A program made the translations under genes and the position numbers. The notes beneath the pieces are model-generated. The model was not told the DNA's origin, searched no databases, and saw only the letters and a program-made list of their open reading frames with translations. A stretch of DNA of 64,000 bases, from positions 416,001-480,000 of the forward strand of contig JBMNIF010000002.1 of NCBI GenBank assembly GCA_050950765.1, in the 5' to 3' direction. The first letter of the stretch is position 1. Every line of letters begins with the position of its first letter. This DNA comes from Bdellovibrionota bacterium. Its GTDB lineage: Bacteria; Bdellovibrionota_C; UBA2361; JAAYZI01. Shown in pieces: positions 21,502 through 60,419 of the stretch.

Positions 21502-21552
21502 GAAGCATATCTTTAATTTTGTAGCAACGTATAACCTTTTTGAACAAAAGAG

Positions 21553-21812
21553 CGTAAAAGGCAAGAGTATCTATTTTTTTTCTTTAATTTTTTACCCTCT
21601 TTCTCTGAAACCACGCCCCGATTGAGTGCGGGGAAAAAGCGTAGAAGGCAAGAGTATCTATTTTTTTCTTTAAATTTTTATCTTTCTTTCTCTAAAACCA
21701 TGCTCCGATTGAGTGCGGGGAAAAAAACGTAAAAGGCAAGAGTAGCTATTTTTTCTTTAAATATTTACCTTTCTTTCTCTGAAACCATGCTCCGATTGAG
21801 TGCGGAAAAAAA
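21553..21812. repeat. Three degenerate tandem copies (period 87-88 bp) of the 3' end plus downstream sequence of the 21746..22009 gene
   Basis: cgtaRaaggcaagagta..ccgattgagtgcgg units start at 21553, 21640 and 21728. Confidence 0.9.
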
Positions 21813-37584: not shown

Positions 37585-37589
37585 ACAAC

Positions 37590-37673
37590 AAATTTTTTAC
37601 CTCCGTTAAGATCTAGCTGATTCGTTTTGCAGTTGCAGCCCGTTCAGTTGTCCCTGAAGGGTGGCACCAAATT
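37590..37673 (+). repeat. Single A module plus core (37659-37668) upstream of the TA operon
   Basis: acctccgttaagatctagctgattcg..cagcccgttcagttgtccctgaagggtggcacc. Confidence 0.88.
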
Positions 37674-37684
37674 CGCTTGTAAAT

Positions 37685-37704
37685 TTGTAAAATATATTTT
37701 ACAA
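37685..37704. promoter_or_regulatory. Perfect 20-bp palindrome, probable TA autoregulatory operator
   Basis: TTGTAAAATATATTTTACAA immediately upstream of the toxin ATG. Confidence 0.65.
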
Positions 37705-37714
37705 TATATAATAT

Positions 37715-38047
37715 ATGGATTTTAAAGTTAGAGAGATCGTTGTTTTAGTTGATGATAATGGCAAATGTCCATATAGAGAATGGAGAAATAACATTCGAGA
37801 TACATCATTAGGTGCAGCAATCGATGCTAGATTAGCTAGAGTTAGGAACGGAAACTTTGGAGATCATAAATCAGTTGGTGCTGGTGTGTATGAACTTAGA
37901 ATCCCAAAAGGATCTGGTCTTAGAATTTATTACGCATTAGAAGGTGATGTTATTGTAGTATTACTTGCTGGTGGTGATAAAAAAAGTCAAAGCAAAGATA
38001 TTATCCTAGCAAAAAAACTTTGGGAGGATTATCAGAATGAAACTTGA
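37715..38047 (+). CDS. Type II toxin, RelE/ParE-family addiction module killer protein
   Basis: GNFGDHKSVGAGVYELRI..G.GLRIYY..LLAGGDKKSQSKDI..AK. Confidence 0.92.
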   Translation: MDFKVREIVVLVDDNGKCPYREWRNNIRDTSLGAAIDARLARVRNGNFGDHKSVGAGVYELRIPKGSGLRIYYALEGDVIVVLLAGGDKKSQSKDIILAKKLWEDYQNET

Positions 38048-38327
38048 AAGTTATGAGAATGAAATTAAAGAAAGACTAAAAGATCCTGACTATGCCGTTG
38101 AATATCTAACAGATGTGTTAGCTAATGAATCACAAGAAACGTTCTTAATTGCATTAAAAGATGTAATTGATGCAAGGGGTGTTCAGATATCAAAACTATC
38201 TGAAGAATCTGGTGTCACACGCCAAGCCCTATATCACTTACTTTCAGATAAAGGTAATCCAACATTGACAACTTTTGTCTCTATTCTTAAAAGCTTGGGG
38301 TTTACTTTACAGATTAAAGCAGCTTAA
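38037..38327 (+). CDS. Addiction module antidote protein (HTH antitoxin)
   Basis: YL..L..FLIALKDVIDARG..ESGVTRQALYHLLSDKGNPTLTT..ILKSLG; overlaps the toxin stop. Confidence 0.92.
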   Translation: MKLESYENEIKERLKDPDYAVEYLTDVLANESQETFLIALKDVIDARGVQISKLSEESGVTRQALYHLLSDKGNPTLTTFVSILKSLGFTLQIKAA

Positions 38328-38332
38328 CGTTG

Positions 38333-39267
38333 TAAGTATTTACAAAAAGATCCCACACTACTAAAGGGCAGCATCAAATTTTTAATCACCAAGCCCTATA
38401 TCACTTACTTTCGGATAAAGGTAATCCAACATTGACCTGTTGCAGATCTGCCCTTCCGTGACGACTGCACGGGCTGAAACTGAAAAAAAGATCAGTCAGA
38501 TTTCTACGGAGGTTAAAAATTTGTGTCTGTTCTTAAAAGTTTGGGGTTCACTTTACAGATTAAAGCAGCTTAACGTTGTCCGCTCTTACTGTTGGGTAGC
38601 ACCAAATTTTTAACCACTAAGCCCTATATCACTTACTTTCGGATAAAGGTAATCCAACATTGACCTGTTGCAGATCTGCCCTTCCGTGACGGCTGGAGGG
38701 GCTGAAACTGAAAAACGGAACAGTCAGATTTCTACGGAGGTTAAAAATTTGTGTCTGTTCTTAAAAGCTTGGGGTTTACTTTACAGATCAAAGCAGCTTA
38801 ACGTTGTCCGCTCTTACTGTTGGGTAGCACCAAATTTTTAACCCCAAAATGAAACTTGAAAGTTATGAGAATAAAATTAAAGAAAGACTAAAAGATCCTG
38901 ACTATGCCGTTGAATATCTAACAGATGTGTTAGCTAATGAATCACAAGAAACGTTCTTAATTGCATTAAAAGATGTAATTGATGCAAGGGGTGTTCAGAT
39001 ATCAAAACTATCTGAAGAATCTGGTGTCACACGCCAAGCCCTATATCACTTACTTTCGGATAAAAGTAATCCAACATTAACCTGTTGCAGATCTGCCCTT
39101 CCGTGACGGTTGCACGGGCTGAAACTGAAAAACGGATCGGCTAGATTTCTACGGAGGTTAAAAATTTGTGTCTGTTCTTAAAAGCTTGGGGTTCACTTTA
39201 CAGATCAAAGCAGCTTAACGTTATAAGTATTTACAAAAAGATCCCACACTACTAAAGGGCAGCATCA
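38333..39267. repeat. Mosaic of duplicated antitoxin fragments carrying inserted inverted A modules, bounded by a 44-bp direct repeat that includes the uup 3' end
   Basis: taagtatttacaaaaagatcccacactactaaagggcagcatca at 38333-38376 and 39224-39267; gggtagcacc junctions at 38594 and 38822. Confidence 0.88.
38849..39218 (+). pseudogene. Second antitoxin copy interrupted near its 3' end by an ~80-bp A-module insertion
   Basis: Near-identical to 38037..38327 up to NPTLT, then CCRSALP*; the remainder (ttcttaaaagcttgggg..gcagcttaa) resumes after the insert. Confidence 0.85.
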
Positions 39268-41048
39268 GCCAACTCTTCCCATCTAGCATAAAGCCTTTCG
39301 ACCTCTTTCTTTGCCCTCTCCCAATCCTGAGTGGCTTGCAGAGCTGTTTCTGCATTACTCATCTGTTGCGGATCGTTAATTATCTCTTGATACTTCTGCA
39401 AAGTTTCTTCAGCAAGTAAGATCGCTTCTTCCATACCATCCAACTCGCGCTGCTCCATATAAGTCAACTTCTTTCTATCACTCTTTACGGGAGCATCTTT
39501 TTTCTTATCTATCTCTGATCTAGGTTTATCTGTTTTTAAGGGTGTACTTAGAGCGCCCTCCCACTGGGCATAATCAGCATAGGTTAAAACTTTCCCATTA
39601 TTTTGAATATCGATCCCGATAAAAGTATCACAAACTCGGTCTATTAAATAACGATCATGCGTAACCAATACCACAGCACCCGCAAACTCTTTTAAACTCT
39701 GCTCTAAAGATTCCATAGCCGGAATATCTAGATCGTTAGTCGGTTCATCCAGTAGTAACACATCCGCCGGTGTTAACATTAACTGCGCAATAGCTAGCCT
39801 CGCTTGCTCACCACCAGAAAGCTCTTTAACTTTCAGATCGATCTGATCTGCTCTAAATTGAAAACGGGCTGCCCAACCGTACAGATGAATAGACTGCCCA
39901 TTAAAAACCACACTATCACCGTGACTACATAAAGCACGACGCACGCTCCATTCCGGATCTAAGTTGGATCTATTCTGTTTAAAGGTTGCTATCTTTAGAT
40001 CAGGAGCGTGGATAACTGAACCGCCACTCGGTTGCAACTCTTTAGCAAGAACCTTTAATATCGTAGTTTTCCCACTGCCGTTCGGCCCTAACACTCCGAG
40101 ACGTGAAGTAGGAGAGATTATCAGATTCAATCCTTTAAAAACCTCTTTATCTTTGAAACGTTTTGCAGCACCTTTAACTTCTATCAACTTCTTTGTCTTA
40201 CGTTCAGATGCTGAAAATGAGATATCTGTCGAAGACTCCCTTAAGCGTTCTGAAGTTGCTTCAAGTTTATCCATCAGATCATAAGCTTGATCCGTTCTGT
40301 ACTTAGCTCGAGTCCCACGTGCTTTAATCCCTTGACGCAACCACTCCGTTTCACGGCGCACCTTATTGGCAAGCACCTCTTTTTCACGCATTTGCGCATC
40401 TAAAAAGAGCTCTCTTTGTTCAAGAAAACGTCGATAATCTCCATCAACTATCAGATACCCTTTCGGATAAGCGCGGTTTATTTCAAGAATTCTTTGGGTG
40501 GTGCGTTGCAAAAACCACCTATCGTGTGTAATTGCGATCCAAGCAAAAGAAGCAGATCGAAGTGTCGTCTCAAGCCAAAGAATACCTTCTAGATCAAGGT
40601 GATTAGTCGGCTCATCTAAAAAAAGCACCTCCGGAGATTGTACCAATGCACACGCCAAAGCTAAACGCTTTTTCATACCACCAGAAAGATCTGCTACCCT
40701 ACCTTCCGTTAAGCAGGCTTGTCTGCCAATAATAGAAACTAACTTATTGCGCTCTTCTTCTGAAAGTTTAGAACTTTTAGCGCTCTGCTCTAAGGTTGAA
40801 ATGACCTCTGCATCTTCAGGGAAAGAAGGGCTCTGATCTACAAAAGCAAGTGAGAGATCTTTCTTCTGTGCAACTACTCCCTCGTCAGGATCCTGCCTCT
40901 TACCCAAGATAGAAAGTAGGGTCGATTTACCGCAGCCGTTACGCCCAATAACACCGAGCTTCTCACCTTCGTTAATTGTTAAGGTGAGTCCTTGAAAAAG
41001 CGGATCCCCTGTAAAAGTTTTACTAATATTTGAGCACGAAATAAGCAT
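39252..41048 (-). CDS. uup: ABC-F ATPase Uup
   Basis: Two ABC domains (GRNGCGKST, GPNGSGKTT), LSGG, LDEPTN, RRETEWLRQG.KARGT linker, KLTYMEQREL C-terminal domain. Confidence 0.9.
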   Translation of the reverse strand: MLISCSNISKTFTGDPLFQGLTLTINEGEKLGVIGRNGCGKSTLLSILGKRQDPDEGVVAQKKDLSLAFVDQSPSFPEDAEVISTLEQSAKSSKLSEEERNKLVSIIGRQACLTEGRVADLSGGMKKRLALACALVQSPEVLFLDEPTNHLDLEGILWLETTLRSASFAWIAITHDRWFLQRTTQRILEINRAYPKGYLIVDGDYRRFLEQRELFLDAQMREKEVLANKVRRETEWLRQGIKARGTRAKYRTDQAYDLMDKLEATSERLRESSTDISFSASERKTKKLIEVKGAAKRFKDKEVFKGLNLIISPTSRLGVLGPNGSGKTTILKVLAKELQPSGGSVIHAPDLKIATFKQNRSNLDPEWSVRRALCSHGDSVVFNGQSIHLYGWAARFQFRADQIDLKVKELSGGEQARLAIAQLMLTPADVLLLDEPTNDLDIPAMESLEQSLKEFAGAVVLVTHDRYLIDRVCDTFIGIDIQNNGKVLTYADYAQWEGALSTPLKTDKPRSEIDKKKDAPVKSDRKKLTYMEQRELDGMEEAILLAEETLQKYQEIINDPQQMSNAETALQATQDWERAKKEVERLYARWEELADAAL

Positions 41049-43172: not shown

Positions 43173-43475
43173 CTACTTCTTTCCGACACAAGAACACTTC
43201 TCAACTTCTACATCTGCACCTTTTTTAGGAGGCTCTAAGTTTAAAAAAAGACACATCTGATCCAGCAAGCGATCGTAATCTCTAAGTTCTCCCATGTTTA
43301 AACGATACTCATTAAGAATCCTTATCTGAAACTCTTCTTGCCACTCATCCCATGCAGCTTTAGAGACCTTTTTATAGATCGCCTCGCCCAGTTTTCCTGG
43401 AAATGGAGCTTTTTCCAAGCCTGCCATCTCTTTACCGTATTTTACACAATGAACCATTTTTTCCTCACTAGCCAT
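43173..43475 (-). CDS. Fe(II)-trafficking / oxidative damage protection protein (YggX family)
   Basis: VHCVKYGKE..GL..APFPG.LG..IY..VSK.AWDEW....ILNEYRLN. Confidence 0.9.
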   Translation of the reverse strand: MASEEKMVHCVKYGKEMAGLEKAPFPGKLGEAIYKKVSKAAWDEWQEEFQIRILNEYRLNMGELRDYDRLLDQMCLFLNLEPPKKGADVEVEKCSCVGKK

Positions 43476-43690
43476 CTTTACCCCTTATAAATACACAACA
43501 TCACAGCATCTATACCTCTACCGTTTCCAATAAACCTTTTTTTCCTCACTAGCCATCTTTACCCCTTATAAATACACAGCATCGCAGCATCTATACCTCT
43601 ACCGTTTCCAATAAACCTTTTTTTCCTCACTAGCCATCTTTACCCCTCATAAATACACAGCATCACAGCATTTATACAGATACCGTTTTT
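43457..43690. repeat. Three tandem copies (period 81 bp) of the start codon, RBS and upstream region of the YggX-like gene
   Basis: cctcactagccatctttacccc at 43463, 43544 and 43625. Confidence 0.92.
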
Positions 43691-46234: not shown

Positions 46235-46578
46235 TTACTTACTTTTTAGTAGAGGCAACTTAGCGGTGTTCCGCTATGACCGCCCTAACTTGGAGGGGGG
46301 AAAGCTGTTTTCTCCCTTACCCTTTTTAGTAGAGGCGATTTAGCAGCGTTCCGCTACGACCGCCCTAACTTGGAGGGGGAAAAACCTCTTACTCCCTTCG
46401 CTTTTTTAATATTACGGATCCCACCCAAATAAGAATTTGAATGGGATCCGCTAAGGGGAAAAAAGTTACTTACTTCCCTTTACCCTTTTTAGTAGAGGCA
46501 ACTTAGCAGTGTTCCGCTACGACCGCCCTAACTTGGAGGGAAAAAAGCTGCTTACTTCCCTTTACCTTTTTTAGTAGA
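46235..46578. repeat. ~80-bp units, each beginning with a copy of the recA 3' end, plus an internal hairpin
   Basis: tttttagtagaggc..tagcRgYgttccgcta..cgccctaacttggaggg near 46243, 46323 and 46486; cggatccca..tgggatccg hairpin at 46415-46450. Confidence 0.88.
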
Positions 46579-57674: not shown

Positions 57675-57808
57675 GGATAGATTAGATGTCCGCCAAACTT
57701 CTAATAAGTTTACAGAGCCCTTTTATATTTTTCAAGGAGTAGCCCCTTTTCTCCGCATAAATACTTTAATCCTCTCCACAGAACCTTTTTACCTTAAGAA
57801 AAAAAACA

Positions 57809-58015
57809 CTAGCTATTCCTTTTTCCTTCAGAAAAAAACACCTGTGCTGCCTCAATTAGTTTTTTACCCTCCCCTCAAAAAAAAGCACTAGCTATTCCCT
57901 TTTTCCTTCAGAAAAAAAACACCTGTGCTAACTCCATTAACTTTTTTACCCTCCCTCCAAAAAAAGACCACTAGCTATTCCTTTTTCCTTCAGAAAAAAA
58001 CACCTGCGCTAACTT
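57809..58015. repeat. Three copies (periods 79 and 83 bp) of the 3' end of the CCA-type gene
   Basis: ctagctattcc(c)tttttccttcagaaaaaaacacctg at 57809, 57888 and 57971. Confidence 0.9.
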
Positions 58016-59329
58016 TATTAACTTGCTTTTTTCATTTCTTTCAGGATCATCCAAGACTAGCTCTTTAAGATAATTTAAGATCTTACCAACCTCAGGCCCA
58101 GCTTTAACCCCCATAGCGAGAATATCATCCCCTGAGACAGCTAGCTTTCCATAAGCAGGCTCTTCCAACCTCTTTTTTTCCTCTTCTAAAATTTCCAGAA
58201 AAGCGTGTTTTTGCGATAAAAACTCCTCTTGCCCCATAGCGGGAGAGATATCTGCCTCCTTAAAAAGTAACCAGTTATCCAACTCACTACCGAGATCGCG
58301 CATAATCCGACGCACACCTGCTGCACCGCAGGTAAAAGACCTCATATGTTGCGCCACCAACAGAGAAACCCTCCGAATATCTTCATTCGAATAACGTAAA
58401 CGCCGCATAACGGTATTACAGATCTCCACACTTTTTGCTTCATGACAGTAAAAATGTCGTCGCCCCCCATCATCGATAGAGAGTGTTTGCGTCTTTCCGA
58501 TATCATGAAAGAGCGCTGCCAATCTTAAGATCAGATCGCGCGGAGACCTTTCAATCACGTCGAGGGTATGCTCAAAAACATCATGAATATGAAACTCATT
58601 CTGCTCAAAACCGATAGCAGGCATTATCTCCGGCAAAACCACCTCAAGTAACCCCGTTTCATATAAAAGATGAAACGCCGCCCTCGCATATTCTGAAACA
58701 AGTATCTTTGAAAACTCTTCTCGAACCCGCTCTACACTAACAGAAGAGATTAAAGCCCGAGACCTCTTTGCCGCCTCTACCGTTTCTTCCGCAACACTTC
58801 TTCCCGCTGCCGCACCAAAACGCACCATGCGCAACAACCTTAACGGATCTTCTTTAAAACGTTCTTCAGCATCCCCTACACCACGAAGTATCTTTGAACG
58901 GAGGTCTGAAAGTCCGTCATAAGGATCAAGCACCCTCCGTGTTGCAATATTAAAAGCTAGCGCATTGATGGTAAAATCTCGTGCAGAGAGATCCTCTGCA
59001 ATATCTTCAGAAAACCCAAGCACACCTCGTGCTACCCGCTTCCTAAAAGTCGTTATCTCTACGGACTCCGTTCCAACAAGAGCCGTTACCGTTCCATGCA
59101 AAAGACCTGTCTCAATAACTCGCACTCCGCAACTTTTAAGCCTCTCGCCCACCTCATCTGGTGTTAAACGTGTAGCTAGATCAATATCTCCGTCTCTCTC
59201 ACCACAAGCCACCTCCCTAATAGTTCCGCCAACTATATGCAGTGCGGCGTCTTCCCCTAACGCCGTATAAAGGGTGGCGATAGGCTCCCTTGTAGTAAGT
59301 TCACTAAGATACTTTTCCAGATCTTCCAT
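57971..59329 (-). CDS. cca: CCA tRNA nucleotidyltransferase with an HD domain
   Basis: VGGTIRE..DIDLAT, TGLLHGTV, EITTFR, EDLSARDFTINA, EDPLRLLR, ALFHDIGK. Confidence 0.85.
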   Translation of the reverse strand: MEDLEKYLSELTTREPIATLYTALGEDAALHIVGGTIREVACGERDGDIDLATRLTPDEVGERLKSCGVRVIETGLLHGTVTALVGTESVEITTFRKRVARGVLGFSEDIAEDLSARDFTINALAFNIATRRVLDPYDGLSDLRSKILRGVGDAEERFKEDPLRLLRMVRFGAAAGRSVAEETVEAAKRSRALISSVSVERVREEFSKILVSEYARAAFHLLYETGLLEVVLPEIMPAIGFEQNEFHIHDVFEHTLDVIERSPRDLILRLAALFHDIGKTQTLSIDDGGRRHFYCHEAKSVEICNTVMRRLRYSNEDIRRVSLLVAQHMRSFTCGAAGVRRIMRDLGSELDNWLLFKEADISPAMGQEEFLSQKHAFLEILEEEKKRLEEPAYGKLAVSGDDILAMGVKAGPEVGKILNYLKELVLDDPERNEKSKLIKLAQVFFSEGKRNS

Positions 59330-59467: not shown

Positions 59468-59544
59468 GGGTCAGTAGCTCAGTTGGTTAGAGTACATGCC
59501 TGATAAGCATGGGGTCGGTAGTTCAACTCTACCCTGACCCACCA
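59468..59544 (+). tRNA. tRNA-Ile (GAT)
   Basis: GGGTCAG/CTGACCC acceptor stem, CATGC-CT-GAT-AA-GCATG anticodon arm, GTTCAA T-loop, encoded CCA. Confidence 0.97.
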
Positions 59545-59550
59545 TTTGTA

Positions 59551-60303
59551 CCTATGTCAACTTGGCTGCGCCAAGATTGACATTACGGGCAGGAATGTTC
59601 CTGCACACCCGTAGGCTATGCCTACTCCGTACGTTGTTTTATGTCGATCTGAGCTTTTATCAAGATTGGCATTACGGGCAGGAATGTTCCTGCACACCCG
59701 TAGGCTATGCCTACTCCGTACGTTGTTTATGTCGATCTGTTGTTGCCTATGCCAACTTGGTTTCACCAAGATTGGCATTACGGAAGAGCTTTTATCAAGA
59801 TTGACATTACGGGCAGGAATGTTCCTGCACACCCGTAGGCTATGCCTACTCCGTACGTTGTTTATGTCGATCTGTTGTTGCCTATGCCAACTTGGTTTCA
59901 CCAAGATTGGCATTACGGAAGAGCTTTTATCAAGATTGACATTACGGGCAGGAATGTTCCTGCACACCCGTAGGCTATGCCTACTCCGTACGTTGTTTTA
60001 TGTCGATCTGTTGTTGCCTATGCCAACTTGGTTTCACCAAGATTGGCATTACGGAAGAGCTTTTATCAAGATTGGCATTACGGGCAGGAATGTTCCTGCA
60101 CACCCGTAGGCTATGCCTACTCCGTACGTTGTTTTATGTCGATCTGAGCTTTTATCAAGATTGACATTACGGGCAGGAATGTTCCTGCACACCCGTAGGC
60201 TATGCCTACTCCGTACGTTGTTTTATGTCGATTTGAGCTTTTATCAAGATTGACATTACGGGCAGGAATGTTCCTGCACACCCGTAGGCTAAGATTGGTA
60301 TTA
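59551..60303 (+). repeat. Seven-copy hairpin-rich tandem array (89-bp and 135/136-bp units) between the tRNAs
   Basis: caagattgRcattacgggcaggaatgttcctgcacacccgtaggct starts at 59572,59661,59796,59931,60067,60156,60245. Confidence 0.95.
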
Positions 60304-60343
60304 CAAACAGCCAAGTTATGGCTGTTGTTTTTTAGTTTTTAGT

Positions 60344-60419
60344 GGGCTCATAGCTCAGCTGGGAGAGCATCGGCTTTGCAAGCCGGGGGTCAAGGGTTCG
60401 ATCCCCTTTGAGTCCACCA
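60344..60419 (+). tRNA. tRNA-Ala (TGC)
   Basis: GGGCTCA/TGAGTCC acceptor stem with G3:U70, TGC anticodon, GTTCGA T-loop, encoded CCA. Confidence 0.97.

Follow-up and report, generated by a model that had tools for sequence, protein, structure and literature searches.

REPs (repetitive extragenic palindromic sequences) are very abundant, short extragenic repeats that occur in arrays, among them the bacterial interspersed mosaic elements (BIMEs) and the REPINs of Pseudomonas, and that are partnered by a REP-associated tyrosine transposase (RAYT) such as Escherichia coli TnpA-REP (PDB 4ER8), repeats and enzyme together making up a REPtron. How REP-type repeats multiply, and how they affect neighbouring genes, is still debated, and we know of almost no documented in vivo products of the RAYT enzymes or of the TIRYT enzymes, which are associated with terminal inverted repeats (TIRs). 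REP-associated duplication joints were reportedly described in enterobacteria by Shyamala et al. in 1990. In the IS200/IS605 elements (IS608, ISDra2), which move by single-strand 'peel and paste', the sequence that serves as the target is at once the left cleavage site. Here we describe a locus in a 64,000-nucleotide stretch of a Bdellovibrionota genome (the window; contig JBMNIF010000002.1, positions 416,001 to 480,000), in which a toxin-antitoxin (TA) operon, modules of a repeat family built on the 10-nt core GGGTGGCACC, and the 3′ end of a uup-like gene adjoin a small tandem array. The locus looks like a variation on REP/RAYT-TIRtron biology, not like a new kind of element. Our reading of the locus as a whole, to which we give a probability of about 0.5, is that a decayed core of the family lies at the uup end and that homology-driven exchange and template switching produced the duplications.

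RAYTs are typically single-copy, vertically inherited partners of REPINs (PMC5581495), and REP repeats overlap the ends of genes and sometimes lie within them, as they do here (PMC3733652). The TIRYT/TIRtron group (Di Nocera, De Gregorio and Rocco, 2013, PMC3733652) is made up of tyrosine transposases that are associated with TIRs. REPs have been found at some E. coli duplication and F′ joints, with short homologies, and these joints were read as template switching or repeat recombination (Slack et al., 2006, PMC1428787, citing Kofoid et al., 2003). The present locus resembles such enterobacterial joints, where tandem-duplication or F′ join points lie in imperfect short repeats with short perfect homology. 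In the joints presented there, however, the amplicons are of kilobase size and REPs are a minority (four junction sequences, PMC1428787), whereas here the units measure 228 bp and all joints lie at cores.

The genome comprises 2.64 Mb in five contigs (C1 to C5) at 40% G+C, and the window is C2:416001-480000; positions below without a contig prefix are those of the window. The locus is laid out as follows.

37588..37668, forward strand: repeat-family A-module lying immediately before the TA operon, ending in the canonical core GGGTGGCACC (37659-37668); 83% identical to the reference copy of family D1.
37669..37714, forward strand: canonical post-core AAATTCGC (8 nt), then the unique TA leader, by sequence.
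37715..38047, forward strand: toxin gene, 110 amino acids (aa), RelE/ParE superfamily, HI1419/Gp49 type (PF05973, 26.6 bits against a cut-off of 23.9; TIGR02683, 109.6 bits against 62.85).
38037..38327, forward strand: intact antitoxin gene, 96 aa, helix-turn-helix (HTH) protein of HI1420 type (PF21716, 60 bits; TIGR02684, 57.5 bits against a cut-off of 53.7).
38328..38376, forward strand: copy of the 32-nt spacer and the last 16 nt of uup, ending in the degenerate core GGGCAGCATC (38366-38375); identical to 39219-39267 at 48 of 49 positions.
38377..38603, forward strand: composite unit 1, part of the 228-bp tandem pair, by alignment and sequence.
38604..38831, forward strand: composite unit 2, 93% identical to unit 1, with an insert at 38665-38747 and the core GGGTAGCACC at 38822-38831.
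38832..39218, forward strand: post-core AAATTTTTAACCCC, then a second full-length antitoxin copy with an insert at 39082-39164; 38845-39081 is 98% identical to 38033-38269.
39219..39266, forward strand: native spacer, then the degenerate core GGGCAGCATC (39257-39266), which overlaps the stop and the last four codons of uup, by sequence.
39252..41048, reverse strand: gene for a uup-like ABC-F ATPase of 598 aa, in convergent orientation to the TA operon and ending in RWEELADAAL before the stop (open reading frame, ORF, and homology).

The intact antitoxin reads ...CCAACATTGAC-AACT-TTTGTCTCT at the point where its copies are interrupted. In all three downstream copies, alignment shows that AACT is replaced at the identical codon by 83 nt (38437-38519, 38665-38747 and 39082-39164), which agrees with an earlier reading of this DNA from its letters only (the sequence-only reading), in which a segment of about 80 bp with an inverted A module had been placed at exactly this point. 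With 79 nt gained on balance, the antitoxin reading frame is broken. The three inserts are mutually 91.6-92.8% identical, and over 74 nt they show 78-81% complementarity to the A-module that precedes the toxin (37588-37661). They contain an inverted A-module, its core minus 6 nt, and 9-13 nt from the start of the module that follows: GGAAGGG followed directly by CAGATCTGC aligns to the canonical ...GGGTGGCACCAGATCTGC, with TGGCAC absent. The insert is thus a ragged patch of family array with a damaged core, and not a clean unit.

Unit 1 begins with the post-core AAATTTTTAATC and continues with antitoxin nt 186-233 (38389-38436), the insert (38437-38519), antitoxin nt 238-291 (38520-38573), CGTTGT, the family module end CCGCTCTTACTGTT and finally the core GGGTAGCACC (38594-38603); the 3′ cap CCGCTCTTACTGTT-GGGTAGCACC agrees with the canonical module end at 22 of 24 positions. 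The 228-bp unit, present twice in tandem, is the 3′ half of a broken antitoxin copy with family sequence capping both sides. At two variable sites, four copies show all four combinations (T/T, C/T, T/C and C/C), which shows homologous exchange among units. The units are gene-conversion mosaics, and exchange of this kind can yield tandem copies without site-specific cleavage. The second antitoxin copy (38845-39218) has neither a toxin gene nor a ribosome-binding site of the native kind upstream, and its ORF (38849-39106) ends after 85 aa.

Every joint between units is a core followed by AAATTTTT. The sequences that the sequence-only reading gave for these junctions are confirmed, namely GGGTAGCACC-AAATTTTT at 38594 and 38822 and CTAAAGGGCAGCATC-AAATTTTT at 38361-38383, as are its further points that the first junction copies the natural 3′ end of uup (38328-38376 against 39219-39267), that GGGCAGCATC agrees with the core at 7 of 10 positions, and that the usual post-core follows, AAATTTTT being the commonest post-core 8-mer (207 of the 967 exact cores). 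That reading took the uup end to be a chromosomal pseudo-core used as a site of recombination or cleavage. Its resemblance to a core does go beyond chance: in an end-anchored alignment of the spacer plus GGGCAGCATC (48 nt) to 816 distinct family module ends, the site scores 14, which only 4 of 700 random non-array 48-mers reach, so that a chance breakpoint on so core-like a site is unlikely. The best module partner is the one before the transposase gene described below (...CCATCCCCACACTAAAGGGTGGCACC). A free local alignment of the spacer to family modules was no better than with shuffled sequence (105 of 200).

What the claim did not anticipate is that the site is more likely a decayed core of the family itself. 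The 10-mer GGGCAGCATC is found eight times in the genome, and at C1:301006 it stands in place of the forward core in a relic (C1:300850-301030) that has the same inverted A-module subtype as the left end of the transposase unit, a decayed inverted core GCTACCAACC, a 36-nt spacer and then ...CCCCCACTGAA-GGGCAGCATC-AG; the region as a whole (C1:300850-301100) is a gene-less relic of that left end with both cores decayed (GCTACCAACC and GGGCAGCATC). At the end of uup the sequence is ...CCCACACTACTAAA-GGGCAGCATC-AG, with the three transitions and the flanks of the C1 relic, and since these are shared with a certain relic of the family, we lean towards regarding the 'pseudo-core', on sequence grounds, as a decayed genuine core rather than a chance look-alike. 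The uup orthologs (37-46% identity) end 3-9 residues past a conserved RW.EL, and the tail of the protein is therefore free to vary.

The breakpoints in unique DNA, by contrast with the joints between units, do not lie at one position. Unique DNA starts 8 nt after the core in the TA leader, 12 nt in units 1 and 2, 14 nt in the second antitoxin copy, 6 nt in a second example on C3 and, where the insert has its far end, 9-13 nt; the distance is variable, not fixed, contrary to what site-specific cleavage would give. Genome-wide, low-copy duplications were collected by self-BLAST of the genome, and an endpoint was counted as near a core when within 12 nt. Among pairs of at least 60 nt, 206 of 1,560 endpoints were near a core (random positions, 1.5%), and almost all of these 206 belong to array-internal modules. 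Among pairs of at least 150 nt, 9 of 165 had an endpoint near a core, and 21 of 660 endpoints (3.2%) were near one, about twice the random 1.5%. The enrichment of breakpoints at cores for which the sequence-only reading had proposed a test is thus present at about 2-fold, but most duplication breakpoints in the genome are unrelated to cores, which is in part the pattern that the same reading had named as refuting it.

Two further core-like sequences were considered and set aside. A minus-strand near-core in the antitoxin, GTGTGACACC (8 of 10 positions, 38211-38220), lies 2-6 nt from the left breakpoint of the fragment; it was given little weight because its chance is about 2% (an estimate allowing for both strands and for tolerance) and its orientation is opposite to that of the joint. 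The sequence GGGAGGATTA at the left breakpoint of the second antitoxin matches the core at 5 of 10 positions, within chance. As separate observations on duplications, a 6.4-kb segment is duplicated at 99.5% identity (C1:432801-439163 and C2:1098481-1104847), one end lying beside the one-mismatch core GGTTCCACCC. Four more short tandem arrays occur in the window (21547-21807, 43447-43689, 46242-46570 and 57792-58020), each with three copies of 80-87-nt units that by eye are unrelated to the GGGTGGCACC family, and repeats of 135-138 nt, up to 100% identical, lie at 59468-60416, around and between two tRNA genes (59468-59541 and 60344-60416).

The predicted proteins of the operon are well matched to known families. 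The toxin and antitoxin genes are co-oriented and adjacent with an 11-nt overlap, each scores above the cut-off of a family model, and together they are, by homology and arrangement, a predicted type II TA operon at the edge of an array region of the repeat family. A perfect 20-nt palindrome, TTGTAAAATATATTTTACAA, lies inside the TA leader (37686-37705), 10 nt upstream of the toxin start codon, and is probably the operator/promoter, serving as operator for the HTH antitoxin. In the curated cut-offs passed, the overlap and the upstream palindrome, the operon resembles HI1419/HI1420 (HigB/HigA-like) pairs, from which it differs in having extra promoterless, broken antitoxin copies downstream. 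The toxin gene is single-copy in the genome (one BLAST match), and every antitoxin match in the genome falls within the TA locus. The post-core that leads into the operon, AAATTCGC, follows 38 of the 967 exact cores.

The repeat family itself is large. The exact core occurs 967 times in 2.64 Mb against 1.3 expected, with 200 more sites at one mismatch, and within the window the core pattern has 39 matches against 2.37 expected. Modules of about 20-100 nt, 60-90% alike, each end in the invariant core, whose flanks include AAATTTTT and AGATCTGC. When one mismatch is allowed there are 1,167 cores, grouped in 239 clusters with 1-28 members; 212 of the clusters have a single orientation and 27 are mixed. 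A 20-mer of core plus post-core is found 211 times in the genome and not once in 30 relatives of other genera. Searches of Rfam gave no family that matches the arrays, the matches in the window being two tRNAs only, and the strand of the cores, compared with GC skew, showed no consistent replication-strand bias. Of 323 A-module starts, 224 come after a core that has one mismatch or none, and 99 have no upstream core; the 10-mers before these 99 have a distribution close to the compositional null, and the sole signal, present in 21 of 30 unique cases, is a C in front of AAATTTTT, which may belong to the module itself.

These repeats depart from classical REPs in several ways. REPs are imperfect palindromes (hairpins) of 20-40 nt, often headed by GTAG or CGTC, whereas the conserved element here is a 10-nt core with neither head, and the commonest module forms no hairpin: the A-module plus core folds no better than shuffled sequence (z −0.51), and a core with CTGGT...CCAG flanks forms a stem of only 6 bp (z −1.4). 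REPs also occur as inverted doublets, while the arrays here are mostly direct. The family is accordingly REP-like in behaviour but, given the unfolded commonest module and the missing GTAG head, closer to TIRtrons than to classical REPs. Like a TIRtron, it has a RAYT-like gene bounded by short terminal inverted repeats (ACTGGTGCCACCC ... GGGTGGCACCAG), and these repeats belong to a genome-wide family in dimers or clusters. The TIR motif published for the main TIRtron group, GGGGWSAS, agrees with the core GGGTGGCACC at best at 6 of 8 positions, and TIR families are termed 'moderately abundant' there, in contrast to about 1,000 cores here; the portion of that account drawn on here describes no modular direct arrays of the present kind (PMC3733652).

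A search of the genome with PF01797 found six copies, 98-100% identical, of the gene for a 333-aa RAYT-like Y1 (HUH) tyrosine transposase, together with an additional C-terminal fragment, 84% identical, at C2:8863-9087.

C2:6166-10164 (region), C2:892201, C2:1186599, C3:210798, C5:7945 and C1:184282: the transposase gene copies.

The translation contains HFH and YIYINPVKAGL motifs. It scores 32.5 bits against PF01797 (cut-off 23), and its best NCBIfam model is NF047646 REP_Tyr_transpos (E 1.2e-18), at 67.3 bits against a curated cut-off of 80; its best PDB match is E. coli TnpA-REP, 4ER8 (E 5e-5). Against the IS200 model NF033573 it reaches 18.2 bits, below the cut-off of 55. All six copies are bracketed by cores, on the left by ACTGGTGCCACCC, 36 nt and a forward core, and on the right by GGGTGGCACCAG, in ...ACTGGT-GGGTGGCACC-AG. 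The gene is thereby arranged like a module between two direct cores, as core, AATCCCAATC ... ORF ... ACTGGT, core, with an inverted core outside, and the left inverted core pair forms a hairpin with a 13-bp stem (−13.6 kcal/mol, z −4.9). Among 30 other genomes of the order, 27 contain relatives of the protein (25-34% identity), frequently several per genome.

As in REPtrons, a gene for a putative Y1 HUH transposase with the HUH/HFH and YIYINPVKAGL motifs is flanked by inverted repeats, in six of six copies. Unlike RAYTs as a rule, it encodes a protein of 333 aa that falls below the curated cut-off, and it is present in six near-identical copies and one C-terminal fragment. With IS200/IS605 it shares the enzyme superfamily, PF01797 being above its cut-off, but the IS200 model falls short of its own and most modules here are without subterminal hairpins; by analogy, IS200/IS605 logic would give direct arrays if the target and the right end were the same core. 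Six near-identical transposase copies, every one with cores on both sides, make it very probable that the repeat family is mobile, or at any rate tied to an enzyme. The sequence-only reading had inferred mobility, and that the family drives local rearrangement, from the TA locus. The multi-copy RAYT-like gene is the stronger evidence for mobility, and all joints of the locus do lie at cores, but cleavage would not be needed for the duplications.

The same reading also spoke of gene fragments captured as new modules, and one further case was found. At C3:398126-398361, the first 236 nt of the gene at C3:399026 have been copied upstream together with its promoter, the piece ending ...CAGGA and then GGCACT-GGTGCCACCC, 6 nt from an inverted core. 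It forms part of a 766-nt segment repeated with a period of 896 nt at 97.8% identity (C3:397600-398361 and 398496-399260, in the region C3:397380-399330), which contains four family cores, the promoter region and the first 236 nt of that gene. Three other long low-copy segments between cores (C2:941838-942043, C1:302600-302860 and C2:1191400-1192060) have no coding relative by tblastx, look non-coding and gave no further case.

In the sequence of events that we favour, the TA operon would initially have had a family core on one side and, on the other, a decayed core adjoining uup; if the uup 'pseudo-core' is a decayed genuine core, the first joint would be an ordinary array joint like the rest. 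The antitoxin region would then have been duplicated, and this presumably preceded its breakage, because a spare copy is needed if one is to be broken without freeing the toxin. One antitoxin copy would next have taken up a patch of array. The first mosaic joints may have formed a few nucleotides 3′ of cores, through template switches or illegitimate recombination, joining family ends to the 3′ half of the broken copy, after which the 228-bp unit would have been copied and the copies would have kept mixing by unequal exchange, slippage or gene conversion. Substrates for such exchange would be the 20-25-nt direct repeats of core plus post-core and the units themselves. Genome-wide, the cores are most likely spread and kept up by the RAYT-like Y1 transposase, which would be unneeded for the local duplications. 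Taken together, the weak genome-wide enrichment, the single further gene fragment and the gene-conversion mosaics suggest that homology-driven exchange explains the amplification at least as well as cleavage by a transposase.

An alternative, modelled on IS200/IS605, is that the enzyme itself made the locus. A RAYT-like Y1 (HUH) enzyme would nick single-stranded DNA beside a core, lift the DNA between two direct cores and paste it behind another core, its modules being the 228-bp unit, a 708-bp stretch from core-AAATTCGC through the toxin and antitoxin to CTAAA-GGGCAGCATC, and the transposase gene. We hold this to be somewhat unlikely, although much about the locus suits it: the module-like packaging of the transposase gene between core-AATCCCAATC and ACTGGT-core, six times over at 98-100% identity; the 212 of 239 core clusters in one orientation; a TA operon that starts after a core plus 8 nt of canonical post-core and has a core-like site at its end; the C3 gene fragment that ends 6 nt from a core; and a first joint exactly at the 3′ edge of the degenerate core. 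Set against these are joints of unique to family DNA spread over 6-14 nt past the cores with no fixed cut site, the ragged antitoxin insert with its damaged core, and the confinement of all toxin and antitoxin matches to the locus, with no dispersed second copy of the toxin gene or of the 228-bp unit. Moreover, no core-like target precedes 99 of the 323 A-module starts, the cores lack a clear replication-strand bias, and the protein, at 67.3 bits, lies below the 80-bit curated cut-off of the RAYT model, its activity being predicted only. The version put forward by the sequence-only reading, that the uup 3′ end is an unrelated chromosomal look-alike used as a substitute site, is in our judgement quite improbable. 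It would account for the agreement at 7 of 10 core positions with a CTAAA pre-core exactly at the joint, and the tail ADAAL lies in the variable part of uup, leaving a foreign origin unproven; the spacer without the core, moreover, is not significantly family-like. Yet the identical variant 10-mer with matching flanks occurs in the C1 relic of the family, the 98 comparable near-core 15-mers in 5.29 million positions include many decayed array cores, and array starts generally need no core-like target.

That the tandem units were mis-assembled from a repeat-rich region is extremely improbable. Part of the stretch is contained in 20 of 22 listed public run rows, from 12 studies, and the unitigs of four runs (X1, X3, X7 and X13) were compared with the locus. 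Short-read unitigs break at every repeat, so none crosses the whole locus and the number of units is unreadable from them; gaps in them (38353-38514 in X13, 38596-38757 in X7) are uninformative, and many apparent joints with sides of less than 40 nt stem from other family copies. Nevertheless, X1 and X3, possibly the source sample, yield error-free unitigs of unit-specific sequence. In X13, a diverged strain, a unitig (38778-38892, three differences) bridges the core, the post-core and the start of the second antitoxin, and in X7 a unitig (38347-38527) contains the uup-end joint, its left side of 30 letters being one short of our rule for bridging. The tandem arrangement is therefore not merely a product of assembly. 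Behind the first joint, X7 has the left flank of unit 1 joined to unit-2 letters at six of six differing positions, which implies either one unit fewer or conversion between units. At the uup end, X13 reads GGGCAGTGTC (C>T and A>G at 39263-39264), which changes ...DAAL to ...DTAL and is less core-like. No sister genome lacking the expansion was found: a scan of metagenome contigs with uup gave only a relative of 28% identity, and among 30 relatives of different genera there was no match at the DNA level to uup or the spacer, the DNA downstream of uup being unrelated.

Several points weigh against the combination of a decayed core with homology-driven exchange and template switching. No full stepwise history or order of events can be reconstructed, and every scheme needs at least four events; a history in which a canonical core-AAATTTTT joint received the 708-bp segment, post-core AAATTCGC through GGGCAGCATC, as a single 'module' fits equally well. 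Six core-bracketed transposase copies make it plausible that an enzyme able to cut at cores is active. The spacer considered without its core is matched by 58 of 700 controls and is not significantly family-like, and the relic reading consequently depends mainly on the shared variant 10-mer with its flanks. The first joint has its crossover right at the degenerate core's 3′ edge, past the last variant letter and outside the longer CTAAAGGG identity, which is where a cut at the core edge would place it, and ten identical nucleotides are short for exchange of the RecA type.

Whichever process made the joints, the genome offers a rich case for the REP/TIRtron field, with about 1,000 invariant 10-nt cores, direct modular arrays, a module-packaged multi-copy transposase gene and two arrays that include gene pieces. 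The TA locus supplies substrates for cleavage assays, namely the canonical core, GGGTAGCACC, GGGCAGCATC and, from one strain, the variant GGGCAGTGTC. Should homology alone drive the rearrangements, this would be a case of ordinary repeat-mediated instability. We think it rather unlikely that the enzyme treats DNA between direct cores, including decayed ones in or near host genes, as cargo to be copied behind other cores; were this true, it would be a single-strand, HUH-driven cassette system that has mobilised its own gene six times, could move a whole TA operon, and turns gene fragments into repeat modules. In this organism, such repeats can both erode and multiply an antitoxin gene while the intact, presumably working TA pair survives.

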